64,000 nt of DNA, taken from contig JBGAGQ010000004.1 of NCBI GenBank assembly GCA_044226625.1, positions 1-64,000 on the forward strand, written 5' to 3'. The position numbers and the translations under genes were made by a program. Below the pieces are notes generated by a model. That model was not told the DNA's origin and searched no databases. It was given only the letters and a program-made list of their open reading frames with translations. Below are positions 48,320-64,000 of the stretch, piece after piece (position 1 is the first letter of the stretch; each line of letters begins with the position of its first letter). Source of the DNA: Thermoanaerobaculia bacterium. GTDB lineage: Bacteria > Acidobacteriota > Thermoanaerobaculia > Multivoradales > UBA5704.

Positions 48320-51300
48320 TTACGGCCCCGGCGTCGCCGTAATCGCGCTCGGATCGGTGCTCAGCTTGCGCCAGTCGGTGACCGGGGTCCCTCCGAAACC
48401 GAGGCCGATCTTCTCTCCCGTCCGCTGGAACTTGTTCGGTACGTTCTGAGCCGGCGGGTAGTAGCCGATCTCCTGGCTGAACCCGATCACCTTCGCCTTG
48501 AAGAACTGGGCGACCGCTTTGAGGAAAGTAGCGTTCTGCCCGGAGTGGCAGGCGTAGAGGACGATCTCGGCGTCCGAGGTGAACTTCTTCTGGACGTCCG
48601 CGATCGTGAAAGTGGTCTTCTTACCGATCGGTTTCGGCGCGATGAACGTAGTGCCCGGTTGGTTGAGGCTCGTCATGCTCGCGGTGTCCATCGCGATCAG
48701 ACTGTTGTTCGGTGTGTTGATGTTCAGCAGGACGTCGGGCTTGGCGAGCGACATTTGCTTGATGCTGCCGCCGAAGGCAATCAGCCCTGAGTTCGCGTGG
48801 GTGAACAGGTTCACCCGTTTGACGGTGCCGTCACCCTCCTGGAGAATCGCGCCGAGCATCTCGGCGAACGTCGAGGCGACCGCGACGGTGCCGCCGGGCA
48901 CCGCGACGAAATCGTTCGTGCTCGGGCTCCACCGGCCCGCCGCGAGCTCGGCGATCTCCACCGCGTCGGTGATCGCCGGATCCCAGGAGAAATCTCCGGC
49001 GAGGTTCAACTCCTTGGTCTGGACGGTCTTCCCCGTTCCGGAGGCGCCGTCGAGCAGGTCCGCCGGAATATCCGTGGCAAAGCCGTCGATCACACTTCGG
49101 ATCAACGACGAGCGCGGCTCGCCGTCGCCCCAGGTTGCGGCGAGCGCTGCCGGATTTTGGGTGTAGCTCGCGGGAACGAAGCCGGCCGAAGCCATTCCGC
49201 CTCCGCTGCTGCTCCCGCCGCCCGATAACGGCGCCACGGCGCCGCCACCGGAACTGGAGGATCCCGCGGGCGCCTGTCCCTGGGTCTTGTCGAAGTAGTT
49301 GATCTTCGCGCCATCCTGCGAGTGGTTGCCGCCGCCGCTGATTCCCCCACCACCGCCTCCCGCGAGCCCGCCCGTGTACGCCGAGGCCGCAGTCTTCGCT
49401 AGGCTCGTGATCATCTCGGCGGCGATCCTCTGCCGCTCGGTATTCGCCTGGAGCAGGCTGTTCATGTTCGTACCGGCCTGCTGCCCGGCCGTCGCCGCCC
49501 CGGCCGAGGTCGCCTGCAGAGCGGCCTGGGCGAGCGCCAGCGTTCCTTGCAGGCCGCTCATATCGCGGAACATGCCGCCGTTCTGGATCGCCGCGAGCAC
49601 GGCCGCGGTGCCGGTCGGATCGGGCAGGCTCGCCGGGGTCGTTATGTTGATGATCGGGTTGCTTAGCTGGCCAGGTTTCACGTCCTCGTTCGTCGCCCGG
49701 CTGCCGGTCTGGATCACGGAGATCTCGGTCGGCTGGAGCGGGATCGGCGAGTCCTGCCAGTTCCAGAAACGAGTGATGTCGAGCTTTTCGGCGCAGTTCG
49801 AGCGGCCGAGCACCGCCTCGGCGAACGTGCCGCCCGAGGCGAGAGGCACGATGTCCTCCTTCGCGCTGCCGAGCCGAATGCCGTGGTCGCGCAGCCAGGT
49901 CGCCCAGCCCTCGTCGCTCGAGGCGTCAGTGTTCATCTTGAACGCGAGGTAGTTGCCCACGTAGCGGATCGGCTTCGGCTCGACCACTTGAGCGACCGGT
50001 ACCATCCTTCCGTTTATCTGGATGCCGTAGCCGGAGAGCAGGAGAGCGATCTGAGCGCCGTCGAGCGAGCGGAACACCGCGCGGCTGTAGTGCATCCGGT
50101 TGGAGTTCAAGTGTTGCTTCACGTTCGCGTTCACACCGCCCGGACGGATCTGCACCACCCGAGTCTCGCCGCCCGCTCCCTTCTTCACCGTGACTGCGGG
50201 CAGCTCGAGCGGGAAGCGCACGCCGTTGCGATTCAACGTGAGCGTCACCGTCGCCGAGACGTCGCGCTCGGAGCTGCTGCCGCTCAAACCGATCCGGCTG
50301 ACTTCCGAGAGGGCGAGGGGATGCTCCGCGCCCACCGCGCCGACCGCCGTACCCGTGAGGTTGCGGAACACGATCTTCATCGGCGTACCGCCCGCCGAGA
50401 CGACGCCCCCCTCGATCGCGACGTCGGTCGGCAGGTAGATCGAGCTCGTGTCGGGGCGCAGAACCGAGCGGTTGAGCAGGCCCGAGATCCGCGCCGATTG
50501 ATCGGCCGACCAGAGGCGGTCGTTGACCTGCTGGAACAGCGGCAGCACGTCGGAGGCACGGTACCTCACATTGCCGCCGCCGTCGGTGCGCAGCACCAAC
50601 GGCACAGGAGCCTCCACCGCCGCCGCGGGCTCGGCCGGCTCCACCGCAACGGCCAGCGCGGTGCGGCGGGGCATCGTGTAGCTGACGCCCGTCCGCGTCG
50701 TGAGCGCCTCACGCAAGAACGCACCCAGGGGGCTGCCGATGCCGGTGAAATGGGCCTCCGGCTCGGGCGCTACCTCGATGACGTCGAGGTTCAAGAGCGC
50801 TTCACGGATCGGGTAGGTGAGCGCGGCGCGCGCGAGCACGCCCTGGAACCGGCGGACCATCGCGTCGTCGTTCCAGTCGACCAGTTGCACCGGGATGAAC
50901 ACCACTTTGTCCGCTTTGACGATCGCGACCTCAACGCGGTAGACCTGCACCACCTCGTAGTAGTGGATGGTGAGGGCGTGCATGTGGTTGTAGTTCGCGA
51001 GCACCCGCGTGCTCACCCCCTCGTGCTCTCTTTGCGAAACCTCTTTGACCACCGAGGCACGCCGGCTCCGACTGCTGTGGGCGTGCTGGTGGGTCCGGTC
51101 GTTGACGCTCTGCATCATCGTGCTGCCGATTTCGCGGTGGCCGAACGAGGTGGAATAGCTGTCGGCGTGAGTGTCGGTGGTCGCCTCGCTGCTGGTGTGT
51201 CCCATCGAGCCGCTCGGCCCGCCGAACAGACCGCCGAGCGGCGCCGAGATCTCGCCCGCGGCCGAGGTCCCCTGCTCCGTCGAGCGGCTGTTGCTGTTGG

Positions 51301-52237
51301 CTTCGGAGAACCCTTTTTGAGCCTCGTTCGCTACCGCTTGGGTAACCTCGCTGATCGATCGGTTCTGCGACGTGTCGTTGGTGAGGTCGTCGGTCTCGCT
51401 GATCACCTCGGTCTCGCCCGCGCGGCTCTTCCGCGACCAGTCGATCACCGCCACGCGCGTGCTCTCGCCCGGTGCGAGCGAGGTGCTGTGGAGCAGTTGA
51501 CCGAGCGTCACTCCTTGGGCGTACCACGATTGGTTGATCGTCAGGAGCGCGCCGAAGGCGATGCGCTTGAAGCCGGCGTCTCCGGCGGCGAGCTTTGCAA
51601 GGTCGAGCGGTTTGAACGCGGCACCGGCAATGTCGACGACGGCCTCGCGGTTCTCGAGCTGGATCTCATCCATGAGCAGTGTCGTGTACTGCACCCGCTC
51701 GGTTGGATACTCGCCCGTCTTGGGCAGCAGGTCGGTCGGCCGCTCGGGATCGAAATCGGGGGCGTTCTCCGGAAAATACAACGTAGAAAGGATCTGGAGC
51801 GCCGCCCGATACGGCGGGTAGAGCGCAAGGTCGCGAACGCTCTGAACATCGAGCACCTTCTCGACGTCGGCCACGCGGGAGGTCGGAATGCTTTCGAGCA
51901 CCCCGACCGGGAGGAATTGGAGCTCCTCGACCTTGCGCCCCACCGCGAGCCCCTCGCGCACGAGGTCGGTGGGAGCGCTGCCATGTTGATAAAGCGGAGA
52001 GCGGAGGTTTCCTCCCGCCTCCAGCACTTTGCCCGCGGCGGAGAAAACCGCCGAGGTGGCGAGATCGAAAACCGTTTCGATCTCCAAGCTCTGGAGAAGG
52101 GCAGCGGCTTCGGGGCCGACGCCCAACAGAACGTGCGGCGAGCGGTGCAACAGATCGCGCAGGGGAAGGTTGCGGAACTCGGTGCGTATCAGGTCGAGCA
52201 GTTCGTCCGTCGAGCTGCGGTTGATCGTTGCGGGCAT
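48320..52237 (-). CDS. Large hypothetical protein; putative beta-pore-forming/translocation region plus C-terminal His-Cys protease-like domain
   Basis: 1305-aa ORF with GAGGAGG RBS; Ser/Thr-rich hairpin region; Gly/Ser linkers; C-terminal VNLFTHA...IVLYACHSG. Confidence 0.75.
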   Translation of the reverse strand: MPATINRSSTDELLDLIRTEFRNLPLRDLLHRSPHVLLGVGPEAAALLQSLEIETVFDLATSAVFSAAGKVLEAGGNLRSPLYQHGSAPTDLVREGLAVGRKVEELQFLPVGVLESIPTSRVADVEKVLDVQSVRDLALYPPYRAALQILSTLYFPENAPDFDPERPTDLLPKTGEYPTERVQYTTLLMDEIQLENREAVVDIAGAAFKPLDLAKLAAGDAGFKRIAFGALLTINQSWYAQGVTLGQLLHSTSLAPGESTRVAVIDWSRKSRAGETEVISETDDLTNDTSQNRSISEVTQAVANEAQKGFSEANSNSRSTEQGTSAAGEISAPLGGLFGGPSGSMGHTSSEATTDTHADSYSTSFGHREIGSTMMQSVNDRTHQHAHSSRSRRASVVKEVSQREHEGVSTRVLANYNHMHALTIHYYEVVQVYRVEVAIVKADKVVFIPVQLVDWNDDAMVRRFQGVLARAALTYPIREALLNLDVIEVAPEPEAHFTGIGSPLGAFLREALTTRTGVSYTMPRRTALAVAVEPAEPAAAVEAPVPLVLRTDGGGNVRYRASDVLPLFQQVNDRLWSADQSARISGLLNRSVLRPDTSSIYLPTDVAIEGGVVSAGGTPMKIVFRNLTGTAVGAVGAEHPLALSEVSRIGLSGSSSERDVSATVTLTLNRNGVRFPLELPAVTVKKGAGGETRVVQIRPGGVNANVKQHLNSNRMHYSRAVFRSLDGAQIALLLSGYGIQINGRMVPVAQVVEPKPIRYVGNYLAFKMNTDASSDEGWATWLRDHGIRLGSAKEDIVPLASGGTFAEAVLGRSNCAEKLDITRFWNWQDSPIPLQPTEISVIQTGSRATNEDVKPGQLSNPIINITTPASLPDPTGTAAVLAAIQNGGMFRDMSGLQGTLALAQAALQATSAGAATAGQQAGTNMNSLLQANTERQRIAAEMITSLAKTAASAYTGGLAGGGGGGISGGGNHSQDGAKINYFDKTQGQAPAGSSSSGGGAVAPLSGGGSSSGGGMASAGFVPASYTQNPAALAATWGDGEPRSSLIRSVIDGFATDIPADLLDGASGTGKTVQTKELNLAGDFSWDPAITDAVEIAELAAGRWSPSTNDFVAVPGGTVAVASTFAEMLGAILQEGDGTVKRVNLFTHANSGLIAFGGSIKQMSLAKPDVLLNINTPNNSLIAMDTASMTSLNQPGTTFIAPKPIGKKTTFTIADVQKKFTSDAEIVLYACHSGQNATFLKAVAQFFKAKVIGFSQEIGYYPPAQNVPNKFQRTGEKIGLGFGGTPVTDWRKLSTDPSAITATPGP

Positions 52238-52307: not shown

Positions 52308-52961
52308 TTACCGCCGCATCAACCGGAACGCGAATTCCCGGCCCAGACCGCGCGGATAGGCGAGGGTGATCCAGAGGAGCGCCTGGGCTTCGAGGAGCGA
52401 GGAGGCGGAAAGCGGCCCGAAATCCTGCGGCTCGAACCCGAGGTCGGCGGCGAGCGCGTGAGCGACCGACTTCGCCTCCGCGTCATCGCCCGCGTATAGC
52501 ATCGTGGCGGCGCCGTCCGGGTAGGCGGGTTTCTCCATGTTGTTCGCGCCGGTCGAGTTGAAGATCTTGACCACTTTGGCGCCCGGAACCCACGCGGCGA
52601 CTTGCTGGCCGCCGCTGCCCGCCGATGGAACGTCGAGCCCGGTGAGGTTCGGCAGCAGCGGATTCGTCGCGTCGAGCACGATCTTTCCGGACAGATCGCC
52701 CGCGCTCCGCAAGGCCGCCTCCGTGGCATCCCACGGCACCGCGAGCACGACGACGTCGGCGAACGCCGCCGCCTCGGCAGCCGAGCCGCTCCGGCCTCCC
52801 GTTTCTGAAATCAAGGCGGCGAACCGGTCCTTGGATTTCTCCGAGCCGCCCCGCGAAACGAAGAACAGCTCATGCCCCGCTTTCGCCCAGCCGCGCCCTA
52901 AGGCGCCGCCCACGCTGCCGGTGCCGAAGACGGCGATCTTGCTCTTGGACGTCCCTGTCAT
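52308..52961 (-). CDS. NADPH-dependent F420 reductase-like (Rossmann) oxidoreductase
   Basis: GTGSVG, VVLAVPW, DATNPL, VVKIFN, AGDDAEAK. Confidence 0.88.
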   Translation of the reverse strand: MTGTSKSKIAVFGTGSVGGALGRGWAKAGHELFFVSRGGSEKSKDRFAALISETGGRSGSAAEAAAFADVVVLAVPWDATEAALRSAGDLSGKIVLDATNPLLPNLTGLDVPSAGSGGQQVAAWVPGAKVVKIFNSTGANNMEKPAYPDGAATMLYAGDDAEAKSVAHALAADLGFEPQDFGPLSASSLLEAQALLWITLAYPRGLGREFAFRLMRR

Positions 52962-53033: not shown

Positions 53034-56000
53034 TCATCCCAAGAACCCGAACGTCTCCACCGCCCGTGCCCGTCCCTCCCCCGCGTCGATCCGTTCGATC
53101 TCGGCGAGGTAAGCCTCCTCGAGGTTCGGTTCGGCCAGGTCACCTTGGATCGGATCTCCGGGGCGGGCGACGGCGCGGACTTCGAGGCCTTCCAGGCGCC
53201 GGACGCGGGCGGTGACGCGGTAGCGATGGCTAAACGAGGTCAGATCGGAGTCAGCGAGGAGCGCCGAGAAGACCTGGCCTCGGGCTCTTTCGAGGAGGGC
53301 GTCGGGGGCGCCGTCGAAGCGGAGTCGGCCGCGGTGGATCAGAAGGATGCGCGAGGCCGCGGCCTCGATGTCGCTCGCTATGTGAGTGGAGAAGAGCACG
53401 ATCCTGTCGGCGGCCTGTTCGAGAAGGATCTGGCGGAAGCGGGCCCGCGATTCGATGTCGAGGCCGGTCGTCGGCTCGTCGACGATCAGGATCGGCGGCG
53501 CGCCGAGCAGCGACCGGGCGATTCCGACCCGCTGCCGCATTCCACCCGAGAAATCGCGTACCTTCCGGCCGGCATGCTCGGCAAGGCCGACCGCGGCGAG
53601 CAGCGTTTCGATCTCCGCAGATCGCCTTGTCGGATCGTCGATCCGCCGCTCACGCGCCCAGTGATCGAGGAACTGTTCGGCGGTGAAATCCGGATAAGCG
53701 TTGAACTCCTGCGGGAGAAATCCGATTCGTAGCCTGTAGTCCGCGAGGTTCTCCGGCGTGACCTCGACGTTTCGGAAGGAAACCGAGCCGCGAGTGGGCG
53801 ATAGAAGCCCCGTGAGCAGACGGAGCAGCGTGGTCTTGCCCGCGCCGTTCGGCCCGAGCAAGCCGGTGATTCCGGGGGTGAGCTCGAAGCTCACCTGCCG
53901 GAGCGCCCGGTGGCCCGAGGAGTAGGTCTTCGCGAGACTCCTCACGGCGATCCGCGGCGGATCCACGCCCACCTCCGCGTTCCAGGCGGGAGGATGTCGG
54001 CGGCGGCGGTTCAACTCAGGATCCCGGGCCTGAAAGCGAGCGACCGCGAGGAGCAGCGGCGGCACTACGAGCAGGGCGACCGCGAGCGCGACCGAACCGG
54101 ACACGGCGGCGACGCGTAGCGGCACGACCCAGCGCGCGCGGATGAAATCGGCGCCCAGGGTGGGAAGAAAGCAAACGAGCGCGACCGGCACGAGCGCGCA
54201 GGTGAGCCACGGCGTCTCGCGGCGCAGCTGGCGATACACGCGATAGAGGGAGTCGGCGCCCGCCGACCGGACTCGCCGGCCGAGCCCGGATCCCGCATCC
54301 GCTGCCGCGGCCACCGTGGCTGCCTCCGCCGCCTCCGCCGTTGCGGGGAGAGACAGGCAGAGACTCGCGATCAAGGCGAGAACGGACAACTCGTCCACCT
54401 CGCCGAGGGTCGCCGCAACGAGCGGCGTCGCCGCGAGGAGGCCTGCCGCGAGCGGCACCAGGGCGACCCACGCCGCCAGGATCCCGTTCAGGCGCCAACC
54501 GGCGACCGCGAACAGCAGCAGCGGCACGGCGAGGCCGAACGCGAGAAGCCGTAGCCGCTCTTGTCGCCAGTAGAGAAACGACAACCGCGGCCGTTCGAGG
54601 TCGACCCCGGCGGGCAGCCGCAGACGCTCGAGCCCCCGGTCGACGTCCTTCCGTCGCAGGACGCGGGCATCGCGCGCCCCCTCGTGGAAACGAACCTCGA
54701 TCGGCACCACCCACCGACCGGACTGGCGTTCGACCCTCGGGATCACCGAGTCTTCCCGCAAGGCGAAAAGCGCGGCGGGCACGACCGTCCGGTCGCCGAT
54801 CGGCAGCGGCTTCGAGAGAAGCGACGCCATCTGCGGGATCTCGCGATCGGGATCGAGCGCAGAGCCCGCAGGCACGACGACCAAGGACCGCGAAACACCC
54901 CCGAGACCGGGGGAGAGCGGCCGCCGAGAAGGGGCGGTGCTCGCCAGAGCCAGGGCTCGAGTCACCGCGTCGACGTCGGTTCGGGAGGCGCTCGGAAGCG
55001 GCTCGAGCGTGAGCAGGGCCGAGGGGGCATCCCAGCCCGTGATCGATCGCGAGCGGATCTTGGCGTCGGCCAATCGGCCGAGAATCCGGACGTAGGCGGC
55101 CGACAGGGCCTCGAGGTCGCCTCCGCGCAGGACCATGCGATACCAGAGCGCCTCCTCGTCGGCTTCCGCTCGATCTTCAAGCTCGGCGGCGAAGGCTCCG
55201 GCGCCGGCCGCCCCCGCCCCGGTCTCGATGCGTGCCGAGGCCGCCGCAGGAATCTCGTACCGGAGGGTGGTCGCGAGCGCGGCCAACCGGTCGGGGCGCC
55301 GGTCGCTCGGGCGAACCTCCACTCTGAGGTAGGCATGTCCGGCGCGGAAGCTGCTCCAGTAGCGTTCGATCGCCCCGGAGCGATCGAGCCGGAGCTCGAC
55401 CGCCCGCACCTGTGTCGCGGTCTCTTCGAGCGTCGCGCCTTCGGGGAGATTCATTCGAATCTCGAAGCTGCCGCCGTCGGGCGAGAGATCCCCCGGACGG
55501 GGAACGAGCGCGCCGCCATAGAGCGCAGCGAGCAGTCCGCACACGGTCCCGAGGACCAGCACGGCGGTGCCCGGGTCGCGCAGCGTCCGCCGTAGCCAAG
55601 GAAGCGGCCCGGCGGTCAGCGCGCGCCATCCGGCGACCAGGGCGCGGCGCGGCGAATTCCGAAATTCGGCGGAGACACTTCGCGACACCGAAGCCCGAGG
55701 GCCGCTCCCTGACTCCCCTGATCTCGCGGGCGGTAGAGCGGCGGCGAGGACTGCTGCGGCGGCGGCGAGAAACAGGGCGCGCGCAGGCTCGGAAAGCAGC
55801 GGAGAAAGAGCGGGACCGGCGAAGGCGACGGAGGCCGGCAACGTCGCGGCGGCCAAGGCCGTGGTCAGCGCGAACGACCGATAGCCGCGGCCCCCTGATC
55901 GGCCCAGTCGGAGAGCGACGGCCGGGAGCGCCGCCGTAGAGCCGAGAAGGAGCGCCACCAACGTGGTCACATCGAGCGGAAGCCCGGCGAGCCAGAGCGC

Positions 56001-57134
56001 GTTGACGGCTGCCGCGAGGCCAGCCGGAAGGGCTAGACCGAGGCTCCACGCTCCCGTCGTGCCGGCGAGCCGGTAGCCGAGACCGGCCGCCACGACCGCA
56101 GCCGCGAGCAACCCGAGCGCCATCCTGAGGAGCAGAGATCGGAGCGGCTCGGCCTCGCTCCAATCGATGGTGCCGCGGACGTGGAGGGAACTCTGGGCGA
56201 GCTGCTCGATCTGGAGCCGGAGCGCGCGGTCGGCCGCGAGAACCGACGCCCCCTCCGCCCGCCAGACGAACAGCGCGCGGGCGGGTCGGCCGCGGTAGCG
56301 GACCTGGAATTCGGGCGGCGGGTAGCGCTCGCGTACCGCGGCCACGGTGGAAAGCGGAGCCGCGCCCGTGGCGAGAGAAGCCCCATCCGCCTCCTCGATC
56401 CGGCTCGACGGCGCCGATCGGAGATCGGGCCGAGCTCCCGGCCAAGGTACTGGCACGCGAACCAACGTCTCGGGCGCCGCCGGCTCGACGACGACCGGCA
56501 TTCGAAAGTCCCCGCTCCGCGCCGTACCAAGATCGCCACGGCGGAACGCGCCGTCCAGAATCTCCCGGATTCGGCCGACGGCCGCCGCCGGATCGCGGAG
56601 GCCGGCCGCGAGCTCCACCCGGATCTCCTCGCGCCGGAGCCCGAGGGCATCCACCGAGCGGACGCCGGGAACGCCACGCAACTCCTCGGCCGCCGCCTCG
56701 GCCGCGGCGTCGGACGTCGCGCCGGATAGCCAGACCAGCGCCAGCAGATGTCCCTCCACTTGAGAGGCTGGATCGACAGATAGCGTCGCACCTGGTGGCA
56801 ACCGCCGCCGCAACGGGGCGAGCTCCGACAGGAGGCGCGCCGCCTTGCTCTCCGGATCGGTGCCGGCGGCGAAGCGGACGCGGATCTCTGCGCCGTCCGA
56901 GCGTACTTCGCCCGCGCTCCCTCGCACCCGGCCGAGCGAGCGGATCGCCGCCTCGATCTCTTCCACCCAGTCGCGCGCGACCGAGGCCGGTTCGCGCGCC
57001 TCAGGCAGCGCGAGGGCGATCGTCAGCTCGGGGAAGCTCCGCCGCGGGAGATAGTCGAGCGACAGCCGGGAGAACGAGACGCTCCCCAGGATCAACAACC
57101 CGAAGGTAGCCACCCGGCGGGCGATCGGCTTCAT
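53034..57134 (-). CDS. Degenerate RND (AcrB-like) permease fused to a C-terminal ABC ATPase
   Basis: AcrB-like N-terminus (RLSLDYLPRRSFPELTI, VEEIEAAI), two TM blocks and LPEGATLEET; then an intact NBD (GPNGAGKTT, FLPQ, FSGGMRQ, IVDEPTTGLD, STH) in one open frame. Confidence 0.85.
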   Translation of the reverse strand: MKPIARRVATFGLLILGSVSFSRLSLDYLPRRSFPELTIALALPEAREPASVARDWVEEIEAAIRSLGRVRGSAGEVRSDGAEIRVRFAAGTDPESKAARLLSELAPLRRRLPPGATLSVDPASQVEGHLLALVWLSGATSDAAAEAAAEELRGVPGVRSVDALGLRREEIRVELAAGLRDPAAAVGRIREILDGAFRRGDLGTARSGDFRMPVVVEPAAPETLVRVPVPWPGARPDLRSAPSSRIEEADGASLATGAAPLSTVAAVRERYPPPEFQVRYRGRPARALFVWRAEGASVLAADRALRLQIEQLAQSSLHVRGTIDWSEAEPLRSLLLRMALGLLAAAVVAAGLGYRLAGTTGAWSLGLALPAGLAAAVNALWLAGLPLDVTTLVALLLGSTAALPAVALRLGRSGGRGYRSFALTTALAAATLPASVAFAGPALSPLLSEPARALFLAAAAAVLAAALPPARSGESGSGPRASVSRSVSAEFRNSPRRALVAGWRALTAGPLPWLRRTLRDPGTAVLVLGTVCGLLAALYGGALVPRPGDLSPDGGSFEIRMNLPEGATLEETATQVRAVELRLDRSGAIERYWSSFRAGHAYLRVEVRPSDRRPDRLAALATTLRYEIPAAASARIETGAGAAGAGAFAAELEDRAEADEEALWYRMVLRGGDLEALSAAYVRILGRLADAKIRSRSITGWDAPSALLTLEPLPSASRTDVDAVTRALALASTAPSRRPLSPGLGGVSRSLVVVPAGSALDPDREIPQMASLLSKPLPIGDRTVVPAALFALREDSVIPRVERQSGRWVVPIEVRFHEGARDARVLRRKDVDRGLERLRLPAGVDLERPRLSFLYWRQERLRLLAFGLAVPLLLFAVAGWRLNGILAAWVALVPLAAGLLAATPLVAATLGEVDELSVLALIASLCLSLPATAEAAEAATVAAAADAGSGLGRRVRSAGADSLYRVYRQLRRETPWLTCALVPVALVCFLPTLGADFIRARWVVPLRVAAVSGSVALAVALLVVPPLLLAVARFQARDPELNRRRRHPPAWNAEVGVDPPRIAVRSLAKTYSSGHRALRQVSFELTPGITGLLGPNGAGKTTLLRLLTGLLSPTRGSVSFRNVEVTPENLADYRLRIGFLPQEFNAYPDFTAEQFLDHWARERRIDDPTRRSAEIETLLAAVGLAEHAGRKVRDFSGGMRQRVGIARSLLGAPPILIVDEPTTGLDIESRARFRQILLEQAADRIVLFSTHIASDIEAAASRILLIHRGRLRFDGAPDALLERARGQVFSALLADSDLTSFSHRYRVTARVRRLEGLEVRAVARPGDPIQGDLAEPNLEEAYLAEIERIDAGEGRARAVETFGFLG

Positions 57135-60100
57135 CGACGCGCGCCCCGAGAAGGCACCCGAGCAACGAGCGCCCGGTAGAGAACCGGCACCAGGAGGAGC
57201 GAAGCGAAGATCGAGGTGAACGTGCCGCCGAGGACGGCGAGGGCGAGCGAGCGCCGCAGCTCGACGCCCGGCCCGCCGAGCAGGGCGAGCGGCAGCATAC
57301 CCGCCAAGGTGCAGATCGTCGTCATCGCGATCGGCCGATAGCGCTCGGCCGCGGCGCGGCGGATCGCGGCGGTCGTCCGTTCGATCCGCGTGCTGGGTGC
57401 CGAGTCGGACACCGATGCGGCAGCCGAGATGCGCCGATGCTCCTCGATGCGATGGACCAGGACGATCGCATTGTTGGCGACGATTCCGCCGAGCAGGATC
57501 AACCCGAGGAAAGAGAGAACGTTCAGGCTCTGCCCGAAAAGGGCCAAGACGCCCAACGCGCCGCCGATCGCGATCGGCACGGTCACCAGGACCACGAGCG
57601 GCAGGCGGAACGATTCAAACAGGGCGGCCACCGCGAGGAAGACCAGGGCAAGCGAGAGCAGCAGCGCGAGCCGGAGCTGACCGAACGCCTCGCGCAGCTC
57701 GCGCGCCTGGCCCGTCCATTCGACGTCCTCGCCCGCGGCGCGGCGTGCCACCCGCTTCAAGCGCGCGAGCGCATTCTCCGGATCGCCACGCAGTGTGGCG
57801 AACGCCCGTCGGGCCGCCGGCCGGCCGGCCTGTCGTTCCAGGACCTCGGGGCGAGCTCCCGGAACGATCCGCGCGAGAGCGGAGAGCGGCACCACCTCGC
57901 CCGGAAGACCCCCCGATTGGCTCGGCAGCCGCACCGGAAGGAGCCCCGGACCGGACGACTCGACCGGCTCGGCGGCGCGCACCAGGATCTCCGGCTCGAT
58001 GCCGGGAAGGCTCACCCGACCGGCCTCCTGCTCGGTAAGCCCTTCCCGCACCTCCTGCTCGACCTCCGATCGCTCGACGCCGAGCGCCCCGAGCCGGGCG
58101 AGATCCCATTGGAGCAGCCAAGCGCCCCGAGGGCCACCGTTCGGAGCTCCGCCGCGCCTCCCGGCCGAAGACGCGCCGAGCACGTCGAGCTCCTTTTCGG
58201 CGCGCGCAGCCAGCGCCTCGGCCCGCTCGGGCGTTGGCGCGGTCGCGACCATTTCGAGCCGCCGGCCGGAGCTGCGGATCGCGTCGACGAATGCGCTCGG
58301 TCGCGGCTCGATCCAGCTTTCGACCCCCGGGAGCTTTCCGAGCTCCGAGCGCAGGCTCTGTCGCGCCCGGTCGGCGTCGCGCTGCCGGGCGAAGGAAAGA
58401 ACCACGCGCCCCGTCTCCTCCCGGTCCTCCCCCGGCTCGGGGGGAGGGAGCTGAAGCGCGGTTCGCTCCCGCGCGCCGAGGCCCTCCACGGCTCGGGCGA
58501 CGGCGTCGTCGACCGAGAGGCCCAGCCGCCGCGCCACCTCGGGCGCGAGCTCGGACGGCAAGCGGAACCGCACCACGAGATCGGACGTTCCCGCCTCGGG
58601 CACCAGCTCGCGCGGCAGGACGGACCACGCCGCCGCCGCGAGCGCCGTGACGGCGAGCGCTCCGGCCACCACCGGAAGCGGCCGGGCGAGAACCCGATCG
58701 AGAAGGGCCAGATATCGCGCGCGGCCGAGATGTCGACCGGCGGGCTCGGCGAGCCCTCGGCCACGCCGGCCAGCCAGCACGGGCGTCAGGGTAAGCGAAA
58801 ACAGAAGAGAGGCCGCGAGCGAGGCGACGATCGCGAACGCCTGAACTCCGAAGAAGGCGCGGGCGAGCCCGCGCAGGTAGACCAGCGGCAGGAAGACCAC
58901 CGCCGTGGCGCAGAAGCTCGCGATCACCGGCGGCGCGATCTGAATCGCCCCGGACAGAGCGGGCGTCGCGACGCCTTCCGAGCGGGCGGTCTCGATCGCT
59001 TCGAGCACGACGATCGAGCTGTCGACCAGAAGCCCCGCGGCGAGCGCGAGGCCGGCCAGCGAGACGACGTCGAGCGCCGACCCCGCGATCGTAAAACCGA
59101 CGAACGCCGCGAGCAGCGAAGCCGGAACGACAACGATCAAGCCGAGCGTAGGCCGCCAGGCGCCGAGGACGAGCCGGAGCACGGCCGTGCCGAGCAGCAG
59201 GCCGAACAGCGCGCCGAGCCCGAGCTCCCTAAGGGCGCCCATCACCTCGCCGCTCCGGTCCGAGACGACGGCGAGGTGGACGCCGGACGCTTCTCGGGAG
59301 GAGAGATCTGCGGTCCGGGTCCGGACCGCGCGGGCGAGCGTCACGGCGTTCGCCTCGGGCGCGCGAAACACCCGCACCAGCGCGCCGTCCCGTCCATCGA
59401 AGCGGAAGAAGGTGCCATCGGTGACCTCTTCCAGGTGGACTCGGGCGACGTCGCCGAGCACACTCTCCCCGCGCGGTCCGGCGATCCGTAACGCTCGGAG
59501 CGCGTCGAGCGTCGACGCTTCGTCGCGCACCAGCAGCGGCCGGACCGATGCGCCGGAGCGCGCCCGGCCGGCCGAGACGTCGACCCCGACCGTGCGCAGG
59601 CGGGCGAGCAGATCGGCCGGGACGAGACCGCGCGCGGCGAGCGCCGCGCCGCGCGGGCGGACTACGGCGTGGCGCGGCAGGAGCCCCACCGTTTCAACCC
59701 GTCCCACCCCCTCGATCCGCGCGAGCTCCGGCACCAGGAGCTTCCGCGCGTACGCACTACGCGCCGCCCCCGACTCGCCGCCCAGGACCGCCACCTCGAC
59801 GATCGGCTCAGCGTCGCCCGCGGTCATCTCGATCGAGACCGTCGCCTCGTCCGACGCGGCGCCTTCGAGATCGGCGAGGCGCCGCTCGGCCTCGATCCGC
59901 ATCCGGTCGGCGTCGGCTTGCCACTCCCCCAGGACCCGGGCGCGGACGAAGCCGTCGCCGGTCGCGGTTCGCACCGTCGAAACCCCCGACATTGAGGCGA
60001 GGCGCCGTTCGAGCGGCCGGGCGTAGCGGTCGAGCATCTCGTCGCGCGAGCGCCCCGCCGCCTCGATCTCGACCTCCAACCGCGGCCGTTCGAGCGCGGG

Positions 60101-60205
60101 CAAGAGGGAGACCGGCAGCCGCAACAACGAGACCGCACCGAGCACCACCAGCGCGGTGGCGCCGATCAATGTCGATACGGGCCTCTCGTAGGCGCGTCGG
60201 ATCAC
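57131..60205 (-). CDS. RND efflux permease (AcrB/AcrD/AcrF family)
   Basis: RLPVSLLP, PLERRL, GLLVDSSIVVLE, LFESFRLP, GIVANNAIVLV, RYRPIAMTT. Confidence 0.92.
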   Translation of the reverse strand: MIRRAYERPVSTLIGATALVVLGAVSLLRLPVSLLPALERPRLEVEIEAAGRSRDEMLDRYARPLERRLASMSGVSTVRTATGDGFVRARVLGEWQADADRMRIEAERRLADLEGAASDEATVSIEMTAGDAEPIVEVAVLGGESGAARSAYARKLLVPELARIEGVGRVETVGLLPRHAVVRPRGAALAARGLVPADLLARLRTVGVDVSAGRARSGASVRPLLVRDEASTLDALRALRIAGPRGESVLGDVARVHLEEVTDGTFFRFDGRDGALVRVFRAPEANAVTLARAVRTRTADLSSREASGVHLAVVSDRSGEVMGALRELGLGALFGLLLGTAVLRLVLGAWRPTLGLIVVVPASLLAAFVGFTIAGSALDVVSLAGLALAAGLLVDSSIVVLEAIETARSEGVATPALSGAIQIAPPVIASFCATAVVFLPLVYLRGLARAFFGVQAFAIVASLAASLLFSLTLTPVLAGRRGRGLAEPAGRHLGRARYLALLDRVLARPLPVVAGALAVTALAAAAWSVLPRELVPEAGTSDLVVRFRLPSELAPEVARRLGLSVDDAVARAVEGLGARERTALQLPPPEPGEDREETGRVVLSFARQRDADRARQSLRSELGKLPGVESWIEPRPSAFVDAIRSSGRRLEMVATAPTPERAEALAARAEKELDVLGASSAGRRGGAPNGGPRGAWLLQWDLARLGALGVERSEVEQEVREGLTEQEAGRVSLPGIEPEILVRAAEPVESSGPGLLPVRLPSQSGGLPGEVVPLSALARIVPGARPEVLERQAGRPAARRAFATLRGDPENALARLKRVARRAAGEDVEWTGQARELREAFGQLRLALLLSLALVFLAVAALFESFRLPLVVLVTVPIAIGGALGVLALFGQSLNVLSFLGLILLGGIVANNAIVLVHRIEEHRRISAAASVSDSAPSTRIERTTAAIRRAAAERYRPIAMTTICTLAGMLPLALLGGPGVELRRSLALAVLGGTFTSIFASLLLVPVLYRALVARVPSRGARR

Positions 60206-61350
60206 GGCGTCGGCTCTTTCGCCGTGCTCTCGGCGTCCTTCGGGCTGTCCGGGTTCTCCCGACTCGGCTCAGGCGTGGCGACGGCGGCCAGCGCATCCCC
60301 TTCCGCGAGCAAGGCGGCACCCGCGACCACGACCCGGTCGCCTGGCGAAAGGCCGCGCAGGATCTCCACCCGTCCGCCGCCGCGTGCGCCCGTTTCGACC
60401 GCCTGGCGGTGGGCGATGAGGCGCCCACGGGCCCTTTCGGCGACGAACAACGCACCCCCACCTTCCGCCAGCACCAGGGCCTCTTCGGGGACCGTGAGCG
60501 CTTGGTCGTGCCGGTCGAGCAAGACGCGGATCTCCACCCCTTCTCCCGGCGCCGGCAGACCCGTCGGGTTTTCCACTCCGATTACCAGGGCGACGGTTCC
60601 GCCGGCGTCGACCATCGGCGCCACCTCGAGCACGCGGCCCGAGCCGGTTTCCTCCTTTCCCGATCCGCTCAAAAAGCGCACGGCGAGCCCCGGATGCAAG
60701 CGGTCGCGATCGGCCGCCGCCGCGCGCCCCTCGACGCGTAACGCGCCGTCGGCGGCGACGCGCCCGAGGACGCTTCCCGCGGCGACCTCCGATCCCGGCA
60801 CGATGGGTTCCGAAATCACGAGGCGACCGGACAGCGGAGCCGTGAGCGACAGGCGACCGAGCCGGTTTTCCGCAGCGGCGAGGCGACCTCGGGCGAGATC
60901 GAGCTCAGCTTTGTAGGCGGCGAGCGTCACCGCCGGCTCGACCCCAGCATCGAAGGCCCGCTGGTGGCGCGCCACTTCCGACTCGGCGCCCCGAACCTTG
61001 AGGCGTGCCTCGGCGAGATCCGCCTCGACATCGCCGAGCGAAATGCGGGCGAGCACCTCCCCCTTCCTCACCTCAGCCCCGGTTGCCAGCCCGCCGGCGA
61101 ATCGCCCTGGATACGACAGCCGGCCGGCCAGGGGCACCGTCACCTCGGCCATCCCCCCCGGCCTCACCACACCGAGCAGCGAAAGTTCCGGCTCGAAGGT
61201 CGTGCGTCGGGCGACCTCCAACCTCACCGGAGCCGGCGGCGCCTCCTCGGAAGGTGGCGCGGGAGCCCGGCCGCAGGCGGCGAGGAGGATCAGCGCACAG
61301 AATCCGAGGGCACCAACGCGGGGGCGGGTTTTCATCGCAATCTCCGTCAT
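60202..61350 (-). CDS. RND periplasmic adaptor (membrane fusion protein), lipoprotein
   Basis: Lipobox LLAAC; VRKGEVLARI, LTAPLSG, VPEEAL, GLSPGDRVV; start 61350 overlaps (ATGA) the upstream stop. Confidence 0.9.
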   Translation of the reverse strand: MTEIAMKTRPRVGALGFCALILLAACGRAPAPPSEEAPPAPVRLEVARRTTFEPELSLLGVVRPGGMAEVTVPLAGRLSYPGRFAGGLATGAEVRKGEVLARISLGDVEADLAEARLKVRGAESEVARHQRAFDAGVEPAVTLAAYKAELDLARGRLAAAENRLGRLSLTAPLSGRLVISEPIVPGSEVAAGSVLGRVAADGALRVEGRAAAADRDRLHPGLAVRFLSGSGKEETGSGRVLEVAPMVDAGGTVALVIGVENPTGLPAPGEGVEIRVLLDRHDQALTVPEEALVLAEGGGALFVAERARGRLIAHRQAVETGARGGGRVEILRGLSPGDRVVVAGAALLAEGDALAAVATPEPSRENPDSPKDAESTAKEPTP

Positions 61351-62042
61351 GACACGAGGGTCTCCGGCCGGCGCAAGCGACGGCGGGCGTAGAGGAAGAA
61401 GATCGAAGCGGCACCGAGGAGCACGATCGAATCGCCGAGAAAGGCGAGCGATTCCTCCCCGCCGGCGACCCAACCGTTCCAGACCGCGAAATGCCGGTCG
61501 GGGATCGGGTTCGAGAAGAACCAACGCGAGAAGGCGAGCACCGTCCCCATCGACGCGAGCCAGACCGCCCCGCCGCTCTTCGTGCGCACCGCCCAGAACA
61601 GCGCCACCGCGGCGAGGAACAACGAGACGATCGCGACCTTGACGAGCGCCGGCAGGAGCGGGAAACCGGTTCCCCCTTCGAACAGCCAGTCGAGCCCCAG
61701 AAGCAGCCATCCCTGGGCGCAGAGCACACTGGCCACCGCCGCCGCCCGACGAAGGAAGTACGCCTCAGCCGCCGGGGTGGTGAGCGCGAGATCGAGGCAG
61801 CCGGCCCGCCGCTCGACCTCGACGATGCCGGACAGCGCCGGCAGACCGAGCAGCAGGAACGGCGGCAGGACGACCCCCGACCAGACCGCCGCCGGCTCGT
61901 CCCCGTCGCCAAGCAACATCGACAGGAGCGCGGCCAGGATCACCAAACCATCGACCACCGCAAAGAGGACGAGACGGCGGCCGAGCAGCAGCTCGAGCGA
62001 CGACCGAAAACTCGCGAATCGGCTTCTCAATTGGCGCCGCAT
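61347..62042 (-). CDS. ABC-2-type membrane permease
   Basis: About six TM segments; ERRAGCLDLALTTP resembles the ABC-2 'ERxxGTLExLLxTP' coupling motif. Confidence 0.75.
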   Translation of the reverse strand: MRRQLRSRFASFRSSLELLLGRRLVLFAVVDGLVILAALLSMLLGDGDEPAAVWSGVVLPPFLLLGLPALSGIVEVERRAGCLDLALTTPAAEAYFLRRAAAVASVLCAQGWLLLGLDWLFEGGTGFPLLPALVKVAIVSLFLAAVALFWAVRTKSGGAVWLASMGTVLAFSRWFFSNPIPDRHFAVWNGWVAGGEESLAFLGDSIVLLGAASIFFLYARRRLRRPETLVS

Positions 62043-64000
62043 CTAACGCACTCCGTTGAAATAGACCCGGTCGCGCGGCACGCCCTTCCGGACCAGGCGA
62101 TGGCATTCCTGATCGGGATCGAGGAAGACCCCTTGCGGCCTGTGGCTGGAGGTGAACGCGAACGACGCGCGGGTGCCCGTCTCGGTCCGCACCTCGGTTT
62201 CCGCCGGCCCGAGATCGGTCGTGAGCACGAGGCGACAGATCGACTCGCCGTCACCCAGATTGTGGACCTGCCCGGTAACGCGCCAACCGCCCCCAGCCGG
62301 CTGGAGGACCACCTCTTCGAGCACCAGCTCGGGAAGACGGCCGGCGACGAAGAAATCGCGGATCATCGGCCGGACGTCGCGCTCGCTCCGGCGCTCCAGA
62401 ATCGCCGCCAGCTCGGCGAATCTCGCCGGGGTTTCGGCGTGGGCGGGTCCCGGCGCGAGCAGCTCCTCGATCGAGGCGCGAAGCGCCTCGGCTCCAGCTC
62501 GCCGGCCGAGCGCCGAAACCAGGGCTGGGAAGCGGTCCTGCCAATACGAGTAGTTCTTCGGATCGAGGGCTGCGTCGTGGACCGCGTCCATCCGCCCGAG
62601 GGGTAGAGGCCCCACGACGGCGCCGGAAGGCGATCCCAACCCGAGACGCTCGAGCACCAGGGTCCGTAGGAGCTGGCGGAAAAACAGCGACTCCTCCGGT
62701 GCGAACCGTCGCCGCCGCAGCAGGCGCGAAGTGACGATCTCCGCCGCCAAACGCTCCGGCGGCAGAGGCTCCGTTCCGATCAGGTCCACCTCTCGGACGA
62801 AGGCAAGGTTGCCCGCGACCCCGATCCACGAATCGTAAGGATCGCGCCAGCGATTGGTGAGCAGGCTCTGATGGTTCCTTTCATGGACCCCCTCGTCGGG
62901 CCATTCGAGGAGGATCAAGCCACCTCGACCCGTGGCTTCGCGCGAGCCGCCCCCGGGCCACGCCTCTTCCATTCGCTGCGCGCTGCCGGCGAGCGAGCCG
63001 AGATGGAGCTCCCCCGGCGCCCGATGGGCCGGGAACACGGCGACCGCGATTCCGCTCCCGGCCGGTCGCGAACCCGCTGCATCCGACAACAGGCGCTGCC
63101 GCCCACCACGAACCGTAAGCTCGGCGAGTGGGAGCGTGCAGGCGCTTTCGAGCCGCCCGTCGCGACCGCCTTGCTCGGAGCTGCGCCCTTCCGGATCGGC
63201 GAGGCCGCCACAGCTGTCCGCGACGAGCAGGCCGCGCGGCACCCCGAGCGATACCGACAGCCGCGTGGCGGGGAAGAAGACCTCCGGCGGAGGGTTTCCG
63301 TCGGCGTCCGGCGCGAAGCTCGAATAGCGCGGAACGGGAGTGAGAGCCTCGGCCGGAAGATCGATCCTCACGCCGGAGACCGCGGGAACCTCGTAGCTCC
63401 AGGAGAGATCGTAGCGATCGTGCCCGAGGCGGACTTTCCGGTTCCGGTCGAAAGCGTGCGCGAACGAGGCGAGATCTCCCCCCTGCCAGGGAGGAAGGTT
63501 GAACTTTGGCGCCCCGGGGCGCCCCTGGATCTCGAACCGCAGCTCGCGGGAACCCCCGGGCGGAATCGGCGGATCGACCTCCGCTTCGAGCCGGTCCCAG
63601 GACCGCCGCAGCCGCACCGTCCCCCGGTCCGCCGAAGCCGCCCGCACGGCGACCTCGGGGTTCAGCGAAAGCGCGAGACGCCGCTCGGGCTTTCGGCCGT
63701 CGTTCCTGAGCACGCCGCGGACGGACACCTCCATCCACCCCTGCCGGCCGAACGCCCCCTCGATCCGCCAGCTCTCCGGCGCGAGCGTCACCGCGGTGGG
63801 CGCCGGCCAGGCGGAGGTCTCGGTCCGATAGCGCCGCGCACCGAGCGCGTCGTAGCCGAGCCAGCGCTCCGTTTCGAGCGCGACGGCCCCGGCCGCGAGG
63901 GCAAGGGCCAAACCGAGCAGGGTGAGGTCCGCCGGTCCTGGCGCCGGGTCGGGCGTATACCGCTCGCGCAGCCGGCCGAACGAGACGAGGAAATTGCGCA
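62043..64000 (-). CDS. Membrane-anchored M1-aminopeptidase-like protein lacking HExxH, partial (probably an ABC-permease fusion; runs off the right edge)
   Basis: Frame is open to the window end. TM segment, then M1-like beta domains (LSLNPEVAV, RELRFEIQG) and C-terminal FLDPDQ; the zinc-motif position reads LAAEIVTS. Confidence 0.65.
   Translation of the reverse strand, partial: RNFLVSFGRLRERYTPDPAPGPADLTLLGLALALAAGAVALETERWLGYDALGARRYRTETSAWPAPTAVTLAPESWRIEGAFGRQGWMEVSVRGVLRNDGRKPERRLALSLNPEVAVRAASADRGTVRLRRSWDRLEAEVDPPIPPGGSRELRFEIQGRPGAPKFNLPPWQGGDLASFAHAFDRNRKVRLGHDRYDLSWSYEVPAVSGVRIDLPAEALTPVPRYSSFAPDADGNPPPEVFFPATRLSVSLGVPRGLLVADSCGGLADPEGRSSEQGGRDGRLESACTLPLAELTVRGGRQRLLSDAAGSRPAGSGIAVAVFPAHRAPGELHLGSLAGSAQRMEEAWPGGGSREATGRGGLILLEWPDEGVHERNHQSLLTNRWRDPYDSWIGVAGNLAFVREVDLIGTEPLPPERLAAEIVTSRLLRRRRFAPEESLFFRQLLRTLVLERLGLGSPSGAVVGPLPLGRMDAVHDAALDPKNYSYWQDRFPALVSALGRRAGAEALRASIEELLAPGPAHAETPARFAELAAILERRSERDVRPMIRDFFVAGRLPELVLEEVVLQPAGGGWRVTGQVHNLGDGESICRLVLTTDLGPAETEVRTETGTRASFAFTSSHRPQGVFLDPDQECHRLVRKGVPRDRVYFNGVR

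Follow-up and report, generated by a model that had tools for sequence, protein, structure and literature searches.

Resistance-nodulation-division (RND) and ATP-binding cassette (ABC) exporters are treated as separate energetic classes, and to our knowledge they meet only through shared adaptors and outer-membrane ducts. Among the closest described systems, MdtABC of E. coli and MuxABC-OpmB are heteromeric RND pumps with two permease paralogues per operon; MacB combines an N-terminal nucleotide-binding domain (NBD), four transmembrane (TM) helices, and its own periplasmic domain in one polypeptide; and YbhGFSR of E. coli is an ABC-2 exporter with a membrane fusion protein (MFP) and two NBDs fused to each other. 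This study analyzed a stretch of 64,000 nucleotides (the window; contig JBGAGQ010000004.1, here C84:1-64000) from a Thermoanaerobaculia genome of 6.6 Mb in 133 contigs. The final 11 kb of the window is filled by a run of minus-strand genes whose ends overlap or abut, and the last of them joins an AcrB-like RND body to a complete NBD (NBD2) in one frame of 1366 residues, as an earlier note on this DNA had claimed; the open reading frame (ORF) at 53034-57134, the Pfam domains, the AlphaFold2 (AF2) fold, and the intact motifs all bear this out. We propose, as an evenly balanced proposition, that the gene cassette encodes a composite exporter, in which the second ATPase of a heterodimeric ABC-2 transporter would be anchored to an RND subunit that cannot be protonated and that belongs to an RND/MFP duct.

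The fusion is genuine and conserved. PF00873 and PF00005 occur together in 110 of the best 120 homologues listed (1187-1434 aa, 38-70% identity), while the remaining 10 are short and several are marked partial; the source names of the homologues are Thermoanaerobaculia or Acidobacteriota. The architecture is concealed by the database names, which read "efflux RND transporter permease subunit" or "ABC-2 type transport system ATP-binding protein". A search of 1.84 billion protein representatives with the RND body alone gave 73 matches at E<=1e-30, and all 42 of those with at least 1200 aa contain both Walker A and the signature motif. The NBD motifs are missing in 22 of the 73, nearly all of which are fragments, such as P0251, which stops in the first NBD residues; P0283 (997 aa) and P0253 (803 aa) alone end about 25 residues past the body and could be unfused or frameshifted. 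Beyond E of about 1e-10, the matches turn into ordinary RNDs of 1000-1050 aa. Among genomes sampled from the class, the body was found in 11 of 151, always in open frames of at least 1269 aa, and among those sampled from the phylum in 5 of 401, all five of which belong to the same class.

The junction between body and NBD was also inspected at the nucleotide level. Logan contigs of run X1 cover 53912-54063 by tiling and show 0 differences, and a 498-nt contig from another study (X3) covers 53831-54328 with 17 substitutions and no gap, so that contigs from two studies list no indels at the junction. The two checks proposed in the earlier note, one of domain architecture with synteny and one of the junction in reads, both came out on the side of the fusion, which is not unique to this assembly. 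Therefore, an artefact in which two separate genes were merged through mis-assembly or the loss of a stop codon is ruled out by the 110 of 120 homologues, the 10 of 10 syntenic genomes described below, the 42 of 42 long representatives, and the junction contigs, and we consider it exceedingly improbable; P0283 and P0253 are the only two short representatives that end near the end of the body.

The RND-like body is poorly recognized by sequence searches and well recognized by its predicted fold. Pfam ACR_tran covers only residues 2-175 of the 1366-aa product (57.4 bits vs a cut-off of 28), and BLASTP recovers only 40 N-terminal residues of the body. The AF2 model of residues 1-1055, built from 81 homologues, had a pLDDT of 88.7 and a pTM of 0.86, and Foldseek matched it to AcrB, AdeB, MtrD, AcrD, and CusA with E of about 4e-38, TM-scores of 0.66-0.72, and 13-16% identity over about 1120 columns. 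The hydropathy scan, the AF2 model, and the Foldseek matches agree on a 12-TM architecture with two large periplasmic loops (porter and docking). The body family profile matches RND chains of the PDB over its first half (E 2e-28), and hhalign aligned the body with the cassette RNDs at a probability of 99.7% over 921 columns. Taking together the short Pfam match, the AF2/Foldseek fold, and this profile match, the fused body is a complete but very diverged RND permease. A low-confidence loop at residues 231-257 of the model lies where the inter-protomer loop of AcrB is located.

The proton relay of AcrB consists of D407/D408 in TM4 and K940 in TM10. Neither the TM4 Asp pair nor the TM10 Lys was found in the fused body by alignment to chain 6ows_A and to the cassette RNDs or in the set of 81 sequences. 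The DD of 6ows_A aligns to "pl" in the body family consensus, a 5-residue gap lies opposite LLVDS of the cassette RND, and Pro930 stands opposite the Lys-equivalent position of TM10; further, D/E/K/R form a majority at no position of TM4 (398-408) or TM10 (920-933). By these alignments, the canonical proton relay is not available to the fused body, yet its fold and sequence are conserved.

The body is followed by about 25 basic, conserved residues between TM12 and the first NBD strand. R1037 is kept in 76, P1048 in 75, and W1051 in 78 of the 81 sequences; the spacing from P1005 to W1051 is 46 residues in 65 of 80, and Walker A follows W1051 at a distance of 40 residues in 41 of 80 (range 39-70). 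Since the linker is short and conserved in both length and sequence, a structured connection is suggested. NBD2 itself contains Walker A (1094-1102; 53829-53855), the Q-loop (1140-1143), the signature (1196-1200), Walker B (1215-1220, with E1220), and the H-loop (H1251), and these catalytic motifs are invariant across 22 sequences. Canonical Walker A, Q, signature, Walker B D-E, and H residues were found in 15 of 15 fused NBD2 and in 14 of 14 copies of NBD1, the stand-alone ATPase of the cassette, so that both cassette ATPases look active. The best NCBIfam matches of NBD2 are of the GldA, DrrA, and NodI types, all under their cut-offs (GldA 158.6 vs 402.6), and its sequence class is DrrA/GldA/NodI/NosF/ABCA, with 7o0y NosF among the PDB matches. 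Contig depth at 53820-53867, exactly at the Walker A codons, is raised more than 100-fold in each of the four metagenome runs, because many unrelated ABC genes cross-map there; this rise is not a feature of the locus.

These properties of the body and its NBD also bear on an ATP-driven RND pump, in which NBD2, alone, with NBD1, or with the NBD2 of a neighbouring protomer, would power the cycle of the RND-like body, ATP replacing the lost proton relay and the ABC-2 permeases being accessory or a separate feeder. The AcrB fold is complete and well conserved although no titratable TM4/TM10 residues remain, and therefore the body would have lost its usual energy input while under selection. The short, conserved linker, the catalytically intact NBD in 15 of 15 fusions, and the essentially obligatory fusion in the family point the same way. 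However, a coupling-helix-like element is not known in RND transmembrane domains (TMDs), and the two permease genes always accompany the NBDs; together with the related cassettes of Bacteroidota considered below, this leads us to regard such a pump as unlikely.

The cassette to which the fusion gene belongs consists of six genes in tight translational coupling, namely NBD1, the big permease, the small permease, a lipoprotein MFP, an RND permease, and RND::NBD2 (Table 1). The earlier note was right about the tight coupling and counted five genes, the sixth, NBD1, being found by reading past the end of the window. Four-nucleotide overlaps occur at 57131-57134 and 60202-60205, the genes abut at 62042/62043, and the NBD1 stop overlaps the start of the big permease by 4 nt. 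The MFP most likely starts at M121 of its ORF, where the start codon (61350-61348) would overlap the stop of the 231-aa gene as ATGA and where, by eye, a signal peptide and an LLAAC lipobox follow directly. As the second NBD gene sits upstream and the M1-like part belongs to the larger permease, the ABC part would comprise two NBDs and two TMDs. The identical six genes are present in identical order in 10 of 10 genomes of the class, with differing flanking genes, and the identity of the fusion protein drops to about 33-38% across these 10 syntenic genomes. The cassette is single-copy in the source genome. In one class genome, NBD1 is split into two overlapping ORFs (L100:12886-13714, minus strand) by a frameshift or sequencing error, and the rest of that cassette is intact.

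Table 1. Features of the cassette (window positions unless stated otherwise).
Feature	Position	Strand	Remarks
Fusion gene P0001	53034..57134	-	1366 aa, uninterrupted ORF; RND-like body + linker + NBD2
RND-like body, residues 1-1055	53970..57134	-	about 12 TM helices, two large periplasmic loops
Basic juxtamembrane linker between TM12 and NBD, residues ~1033-1060	53955..54038	-	conserved
NBD2, residues ~1061-1366 plus stop	53034..53954	-	ABC_tran 111.6 bits on residues 1078-1223
RND permease P0002	57131..60205	-	1024 aa, full length
MFP adaptor	60202..61350	-	start taken at M121 of ORF 60202..61710; probably lipoprotein
Small polytopic membrane protein P0004 (small permease)	61347..62042	-	231 aa, probable ABC-2-like permease
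Big permease P0126, window part	62043..64000	-	952 aa in full, runs on to contig position 64901
NBD1, stand-alone ABC ATPase	contig 64898-65809, beyond window end	-	303 aa

The second RND and the MFP, which the earlier note had named as partner genes, are confirmed by clear family matches. P0002 scores 454 bits against ACR_tran over residues 5-1012 and aligns end to end with chain 6ows_A, and the MFP scores 119.2 bits against TIGR01730 (curated cut-off 94.9) and 41.8 bits against HlyD_3 (cut-off 22.2). In 10 of 10 cassette orthologues, P0002 has VD[SN]S in TM4, N instead of Lys in TM10, and RYRP in TM11; namely, the first Asp of TM4 and the Arg of TM11 are retained, and Ser/Asn occupies the second Asp position. 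This TM4/TM10 pattern is common to the Bacteroidota cassette RNDs and is therefore a clade trait and not decay.

Concerning the big permease, the hydropathy scan of P0126 gave six N-terminal TM helices, a seventh TM, and then about 600 periplasmic residues, and its AF2 model had a pLDDT of 90.4. Its permease part matches ABC2_membrane_3 weakly (E 0.032; 13.8 bits vs a cut-off of 31.6); among the 120 homologues listed for P0126, PF12679 was found in 2, and three bear a NosY-type permease name. The periplasmic domain matched ERAP1/ERAP2/IRAP/APN/EryP in Foldseek with E 2.5e-13 over about 640 columns, and a weak profile match to aminopeptidase N chain 5zi5_A (E 3.5e-4) was also obtained. The zinc site of M1 aminopeptidases is HEXXH(X18)E; only 3 of 63 P0126 family members have an HExxH, at non-conserved columns, and Pfam Peptidase_M1 does not match P0126. 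The periplasmic domain thus has an M1 fold without the zinc site. The dead peptidase of the earlier note thus stands as a fold lacking a conserved HEXXH, not as a separate peptidase, being the periplasmic C-terminal part of the 952-aa permease. Within it, one helix (residues 626-649; window about 62955-63026) carries an invariant H626 together with nearly invariant H633, E646, W648, and P649, a cluster that may bind a metal or ligand at a non-canonical site. Two-gene systems of an NBD and a protein of about 1200 aa with ABC2_membrane_3 and Peptidase_M1 domains were encountered at L006:9992-14457 (Aquimarina, 1190 aa), L013, L016, and L022, and they are likely simpler relatives of the NBD1/big-permease pair.

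The small permease, P0004, shows by eye five clear hydrophobic segments and one weaker one, and the hydropathy, the overlapping NBD1 gene next to the permeases, and the order kept in 10 of 10 genomes fit the pattern of about six TM helices with an adjacent NBD gene that characterizes ABC-2 permeases. Its alignment comprises 8 of the 10 loci, L097 and L100 being left out because their longest-ORF calls were over-extended. The motif ERRAGxLDLALT is conserved in it and aligns with an equivalent ERRAGxLDL-type motif after TM2 of the big permease. The Atlas neighbours of the small permease are "ABC-2 type permease" clusters, which serve as a lead only, and its profile found nothing in the PDB (best E 0.13). 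Resting on topology, one shared motif, and the Atlas leads, P0004 is a probable ABC-2-like permease; the earlier note had named it an ABC-2 permease outright.

Related cassettes were found in Bacteroidota. A locus scan from a full-length alignment picked NBD motifs as its patterns and returned 80 generic ABC loci, in which tblastn with the permeases and the fused body gave no match; L010 and L014 from this NBD-pattern scan hold RND::NBD fusions. Long "matches" in the Burkholderiales loci L011, L059, L066, and L069 were rejected, as they are two separate NBD genes and not fusions. The Bacteroidota RND::NBD proteins have 1437-1589 aa with the NBD at the end (for example, L014:6524-10837) and score 532-561 bits against ACR_tran; carriers include metagenome-assembled genomes of Bacteroidales and Porphyromonadaceae. 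A free and a fused NBD lie about 13 kb apart in 5 of 5 genomes examined. In 4 of 4 loci (L112, L109, L110, L111), the gene order is NBD1, big permease, outer-membrane factor (OMF), MFP, RND, RND::NBD2, and a 238-aa permease, so that the small-permease gene directly follows the fused NBD gene in these four 7-gene cassettes. The fifth genome (L014/L108) is rearranged, and its 922-aa protein matches the big-permease profile at 97.9% probability. The 238-aa protein of Bacteroidales aligned with the small-permease profile over 202 columns at just 6% probability. Since this component set is constant in the Acidobacteriota and Bacteroidota loci, every cassette has two NBDs and two permeases, which fits the needs of a heterodimeric ABC transporter.

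The same cassettes weaken the case for ATP driving the RND cycle directly. In the Bacteroidota fusions, the Asp of TM4 and the Arg of TM11 are still present, so relay loss is not general to RND::NBD fusions. Further, the long forms (1567-1589 aa) carry about 290 aa between RND body and NBD, and the 4-6 hydrophobic segments inserted there in several fusions argue against a fixed, direct mechanical link. The history of the two groups was approached with two trees. In the NBD tree (38 rows, the split NBD1 of L100 being left out), one cluster (89/85) unites NBDs of the two-gene NBD + ABC-2/M1-permease systems with 4 of the 5 Bacteroidota NBD1. The RND tree was made with a quick method from 7 of the 10 Acidobacteriota cassettes and 5 Bacteroidota cassettes, L100, L103, and L104 being omitted as close kin of L099/L102. 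Each Bacteroidota fusion groups in it with its own neighbouring RND, and therefore a common origin of the Acidobacteriota and Bacteroidota fusions is not shown; convergence and artefact are indistinguishable in this tree because strong composition heterogeneity was flagged.

Our preferred reading of the cassette as a composite exporter agrees with the mechanism put forward in the earlier note, where the fused NBD would energize the ABC-2 permeases from its tether on the RND/MFP conduit, and can be set out as follows. The two permeases and two ATPases would form a heterodimeric ABC-2-type (type V-like) transporter, and NBD2 would be covalently joined via the short, conserved, basic linker to TM12 of the AcrB-fold subunit. 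This subunit, because its titratable TM4/TM10 residues are lost, would be unable to use the proton gradient itself; it would assemble with the RND paralogue, in which the TM4 Asp and TM11 Arg are kept, and with the MFP into a periplasm-spanning duct that uses an OMF encoded elsewhere. The NBD1/NBD2 dimer would drive the ABC-2 half by binding and hydrolyzing ATP, and through the tether this would be coupled to, or gate, the RND half. In the periplasm, the M1-like domain, being catalytically dead, would serve to bind the substrate or to hand it over. As a guess, the substrate could be a peptide or another envelope component, the dead M1 domain hinting at a peptide-like ligand.

The contact between NBD and permease was addressed by complex prediction, as proposed in the earlier note for the NBD and the permease at 61347..62042. 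NBD2 (1055-1366) with the small permease gave an ipSAE of 0.57 vs 0.00 for the best of three controls, which counts as weak support. At least 82% of the contacts recur between runs, and the partner has a pLDDT of at least 74. Of 80 solved complexes, 58 pass the mark used in this prediction, as do 2 of 110 mismatched pairs; only 7 of the 80 solved complexes pass it with scores of 0.60 or lower, as do both passing mismatches.

Several points weigh against the composite exporter. The predicted complex may reflect a generic likeness of NBD-permease pairs. RND pumps are trimers and ABC transporters are dimers, which leaves a symmetry mismatch. An NBD1 homodimer could serve both permeases, and NBD2 would therefore be left for another role. 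Within the genome, NBD1 and NBD2 do not pair as closest paralogues, and the tree gives no firm deep order of the NBD clades. No member of the small-permease alignment (0 of 8) matches a Pfam family, and the small and big permease profiles align over only 38 columns at 15.8% probability. The partner RND is without the TM10 Lys and the second TM4 Asp, and no OMF gene was found on the cassette contig, the 18 OEP matches of the genome including 0 on C84. Finally, the fused frame and its conservation, the folds, the state of the motifs, and the constant gene set are observed, and from these we infer the protein-protein contacts, stoichiometry, transport direction, substrate, and mechanism.

An alternative is an arrangement of co-localization or regulation only, in which an ABC-2 exporter running on an NBD1 homodimer and a proton-driven RND/MFP pump serve one pathway, and NBD2 is an ATP-sensing, assembly, or scaffold domain without energy coupling. 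One NBD gene with two permease genes is a common ABC-2 layout; the clustering of 4 of 5 Bacteroidota NBD1 with two-gene systems points to a self-sufficient ancestral ABC module; and the Asp/Arg pair kept by the partner RND could carry protons. However, a purely regulatory NBD should tolerate degenerate motifs, yet 15 of 15 are canonical, and the relay loss in the attached RND-like body is hard to explain for an ordinary, independent pump subunit. We therefore find such an arrangement improbable.

Around the cassette, a 217-aa F420_oxidored/NADP-oxidoreductase-like gene (52308-52961, minus strand) lies 72 nt downstream of the fusion gene and outside the conserved cassette. The search downstream of the fusion gene gave neither promoter-like nor terminator-like sites, and the stretch between it and this oxidoreductase-like gene holds no terminator-like site. 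Further downstream, a 1305-aa ORF (48320-52237, minus strand) has Gly/Ser-rich stretches and a weak DUF4347 match (E 0.0015) and is not conserved beside the cassette in other genomes. On the other side, an M23 peptidase gene with a signal peptide (C84 65936-66796, minus strand) lies 126 nt upstream of NBD1 and was not found beside the cassette in the other nine genomes.

The conserved welding of an intact ABC ATPase to a relay-less RND fold is Rosetta-stone genetic evidence that the two machineries work in physical contact. Provided that such contact is confirmed, the defined set of six genes makes it testable whether ATP powers or gates the RND scaffold and in what way a dimeric ABC engine is docked to a pump that is trimeric. 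A bolder idea, which we consider doubtful, is that the AcrB-fold subunit has swapped proton coupling for ATP, with the attached and the free NBD together driving or gating the RND cycle. If true, this ATP-for-proton swap would be one machine that mechanically couples ABC and RND mechanisms, and a third way of energizing tripartite efflux in at least two phyla.

Reviews of tripartite ABC pumps such as MacAB-TolC include PMC5985334 and a 2021 Chem Rev article (PMC8277102); a term search covering part of the text of the latter found no RND-ABC fusion. Full-text searching of the literature, with supplements and subscription journals outside its scope, also turned up no description of such a fusion, in agreement with the earlier note, which knew of no characterized example. 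The parts of the cassette are of known kinds, and their covalent and syntenic combination is not described. Like MacAB-TolC, the cassette would have an ATPase, an MFP, and an outer-membrane duct acting in one envelope-spanning exporter. Unlike MacB, NBD2 is C-terminal to a 12-TM AcrB fold and is DrrA/GldA/NosF/ABCA-like in class; a MacB-type tripartite pump was rejected on this domain order and on the best NBD matches, which are GldA/DrrA/NodI and ABCA/NosF.

In comparison with the heteromeric RND pumps, the cassette resembles MdtABC and MuxABC-OpmB in having two adjacent RND-fold genes downstream of one MFP gene, with the OMF perhaps supplied in trans, and MdtB chain 9lyq_B is among the PDB matches of both the body family and the cassette RND. 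It differs from them in that its second paralogue is extremely diverged, lacks the relay, and bears a C-terminal ABC ATPase, and in that the operon adds another NBD and two ABC-2-like permeases. With YbhGFSR it shares two ABC-2-type permeases, two NBDs, and an MFP in one operon, whereas the RND component and the fusion of an NBD to a pump body are peculiar to the cassette. The NosDFY and GldAFG systems are alike in NBD subclass and in an ABC-2 permease working with a large periplasmic partner domain; however, the scores are far under the equivalog cut-offs, the cassette does not lie in NosD/NosL or Gld surroundings, and an RND part is absent from those systems.

The two-gene Aquimarina system at L006 likewise has an ABC-2-type TMD followed by a periplasmic M1-fold domain and preceded by a closely related NBD. 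Proteins of this type match Pfam Peptidase_M1, whereas P0126, without HEXXH, does not, and the two-gene systems are without RND, MFP, or second NBD, unlike the cassette. The nearest counterparts are the Bacteroidota RND::NBD cassettes, which are alike in NBD1, big permease, MFP, RND, RND::NBD2, small permease, NBD class, and intact motifs, and which differ in their OMF gene, the place of the small permease after the fusion, a body with a strong ACR_tran match and the TM4 Asp, and the insert of the long forms. These Bacteroidota cassettes suggest that the principle reaches beyond one obscure lineage.

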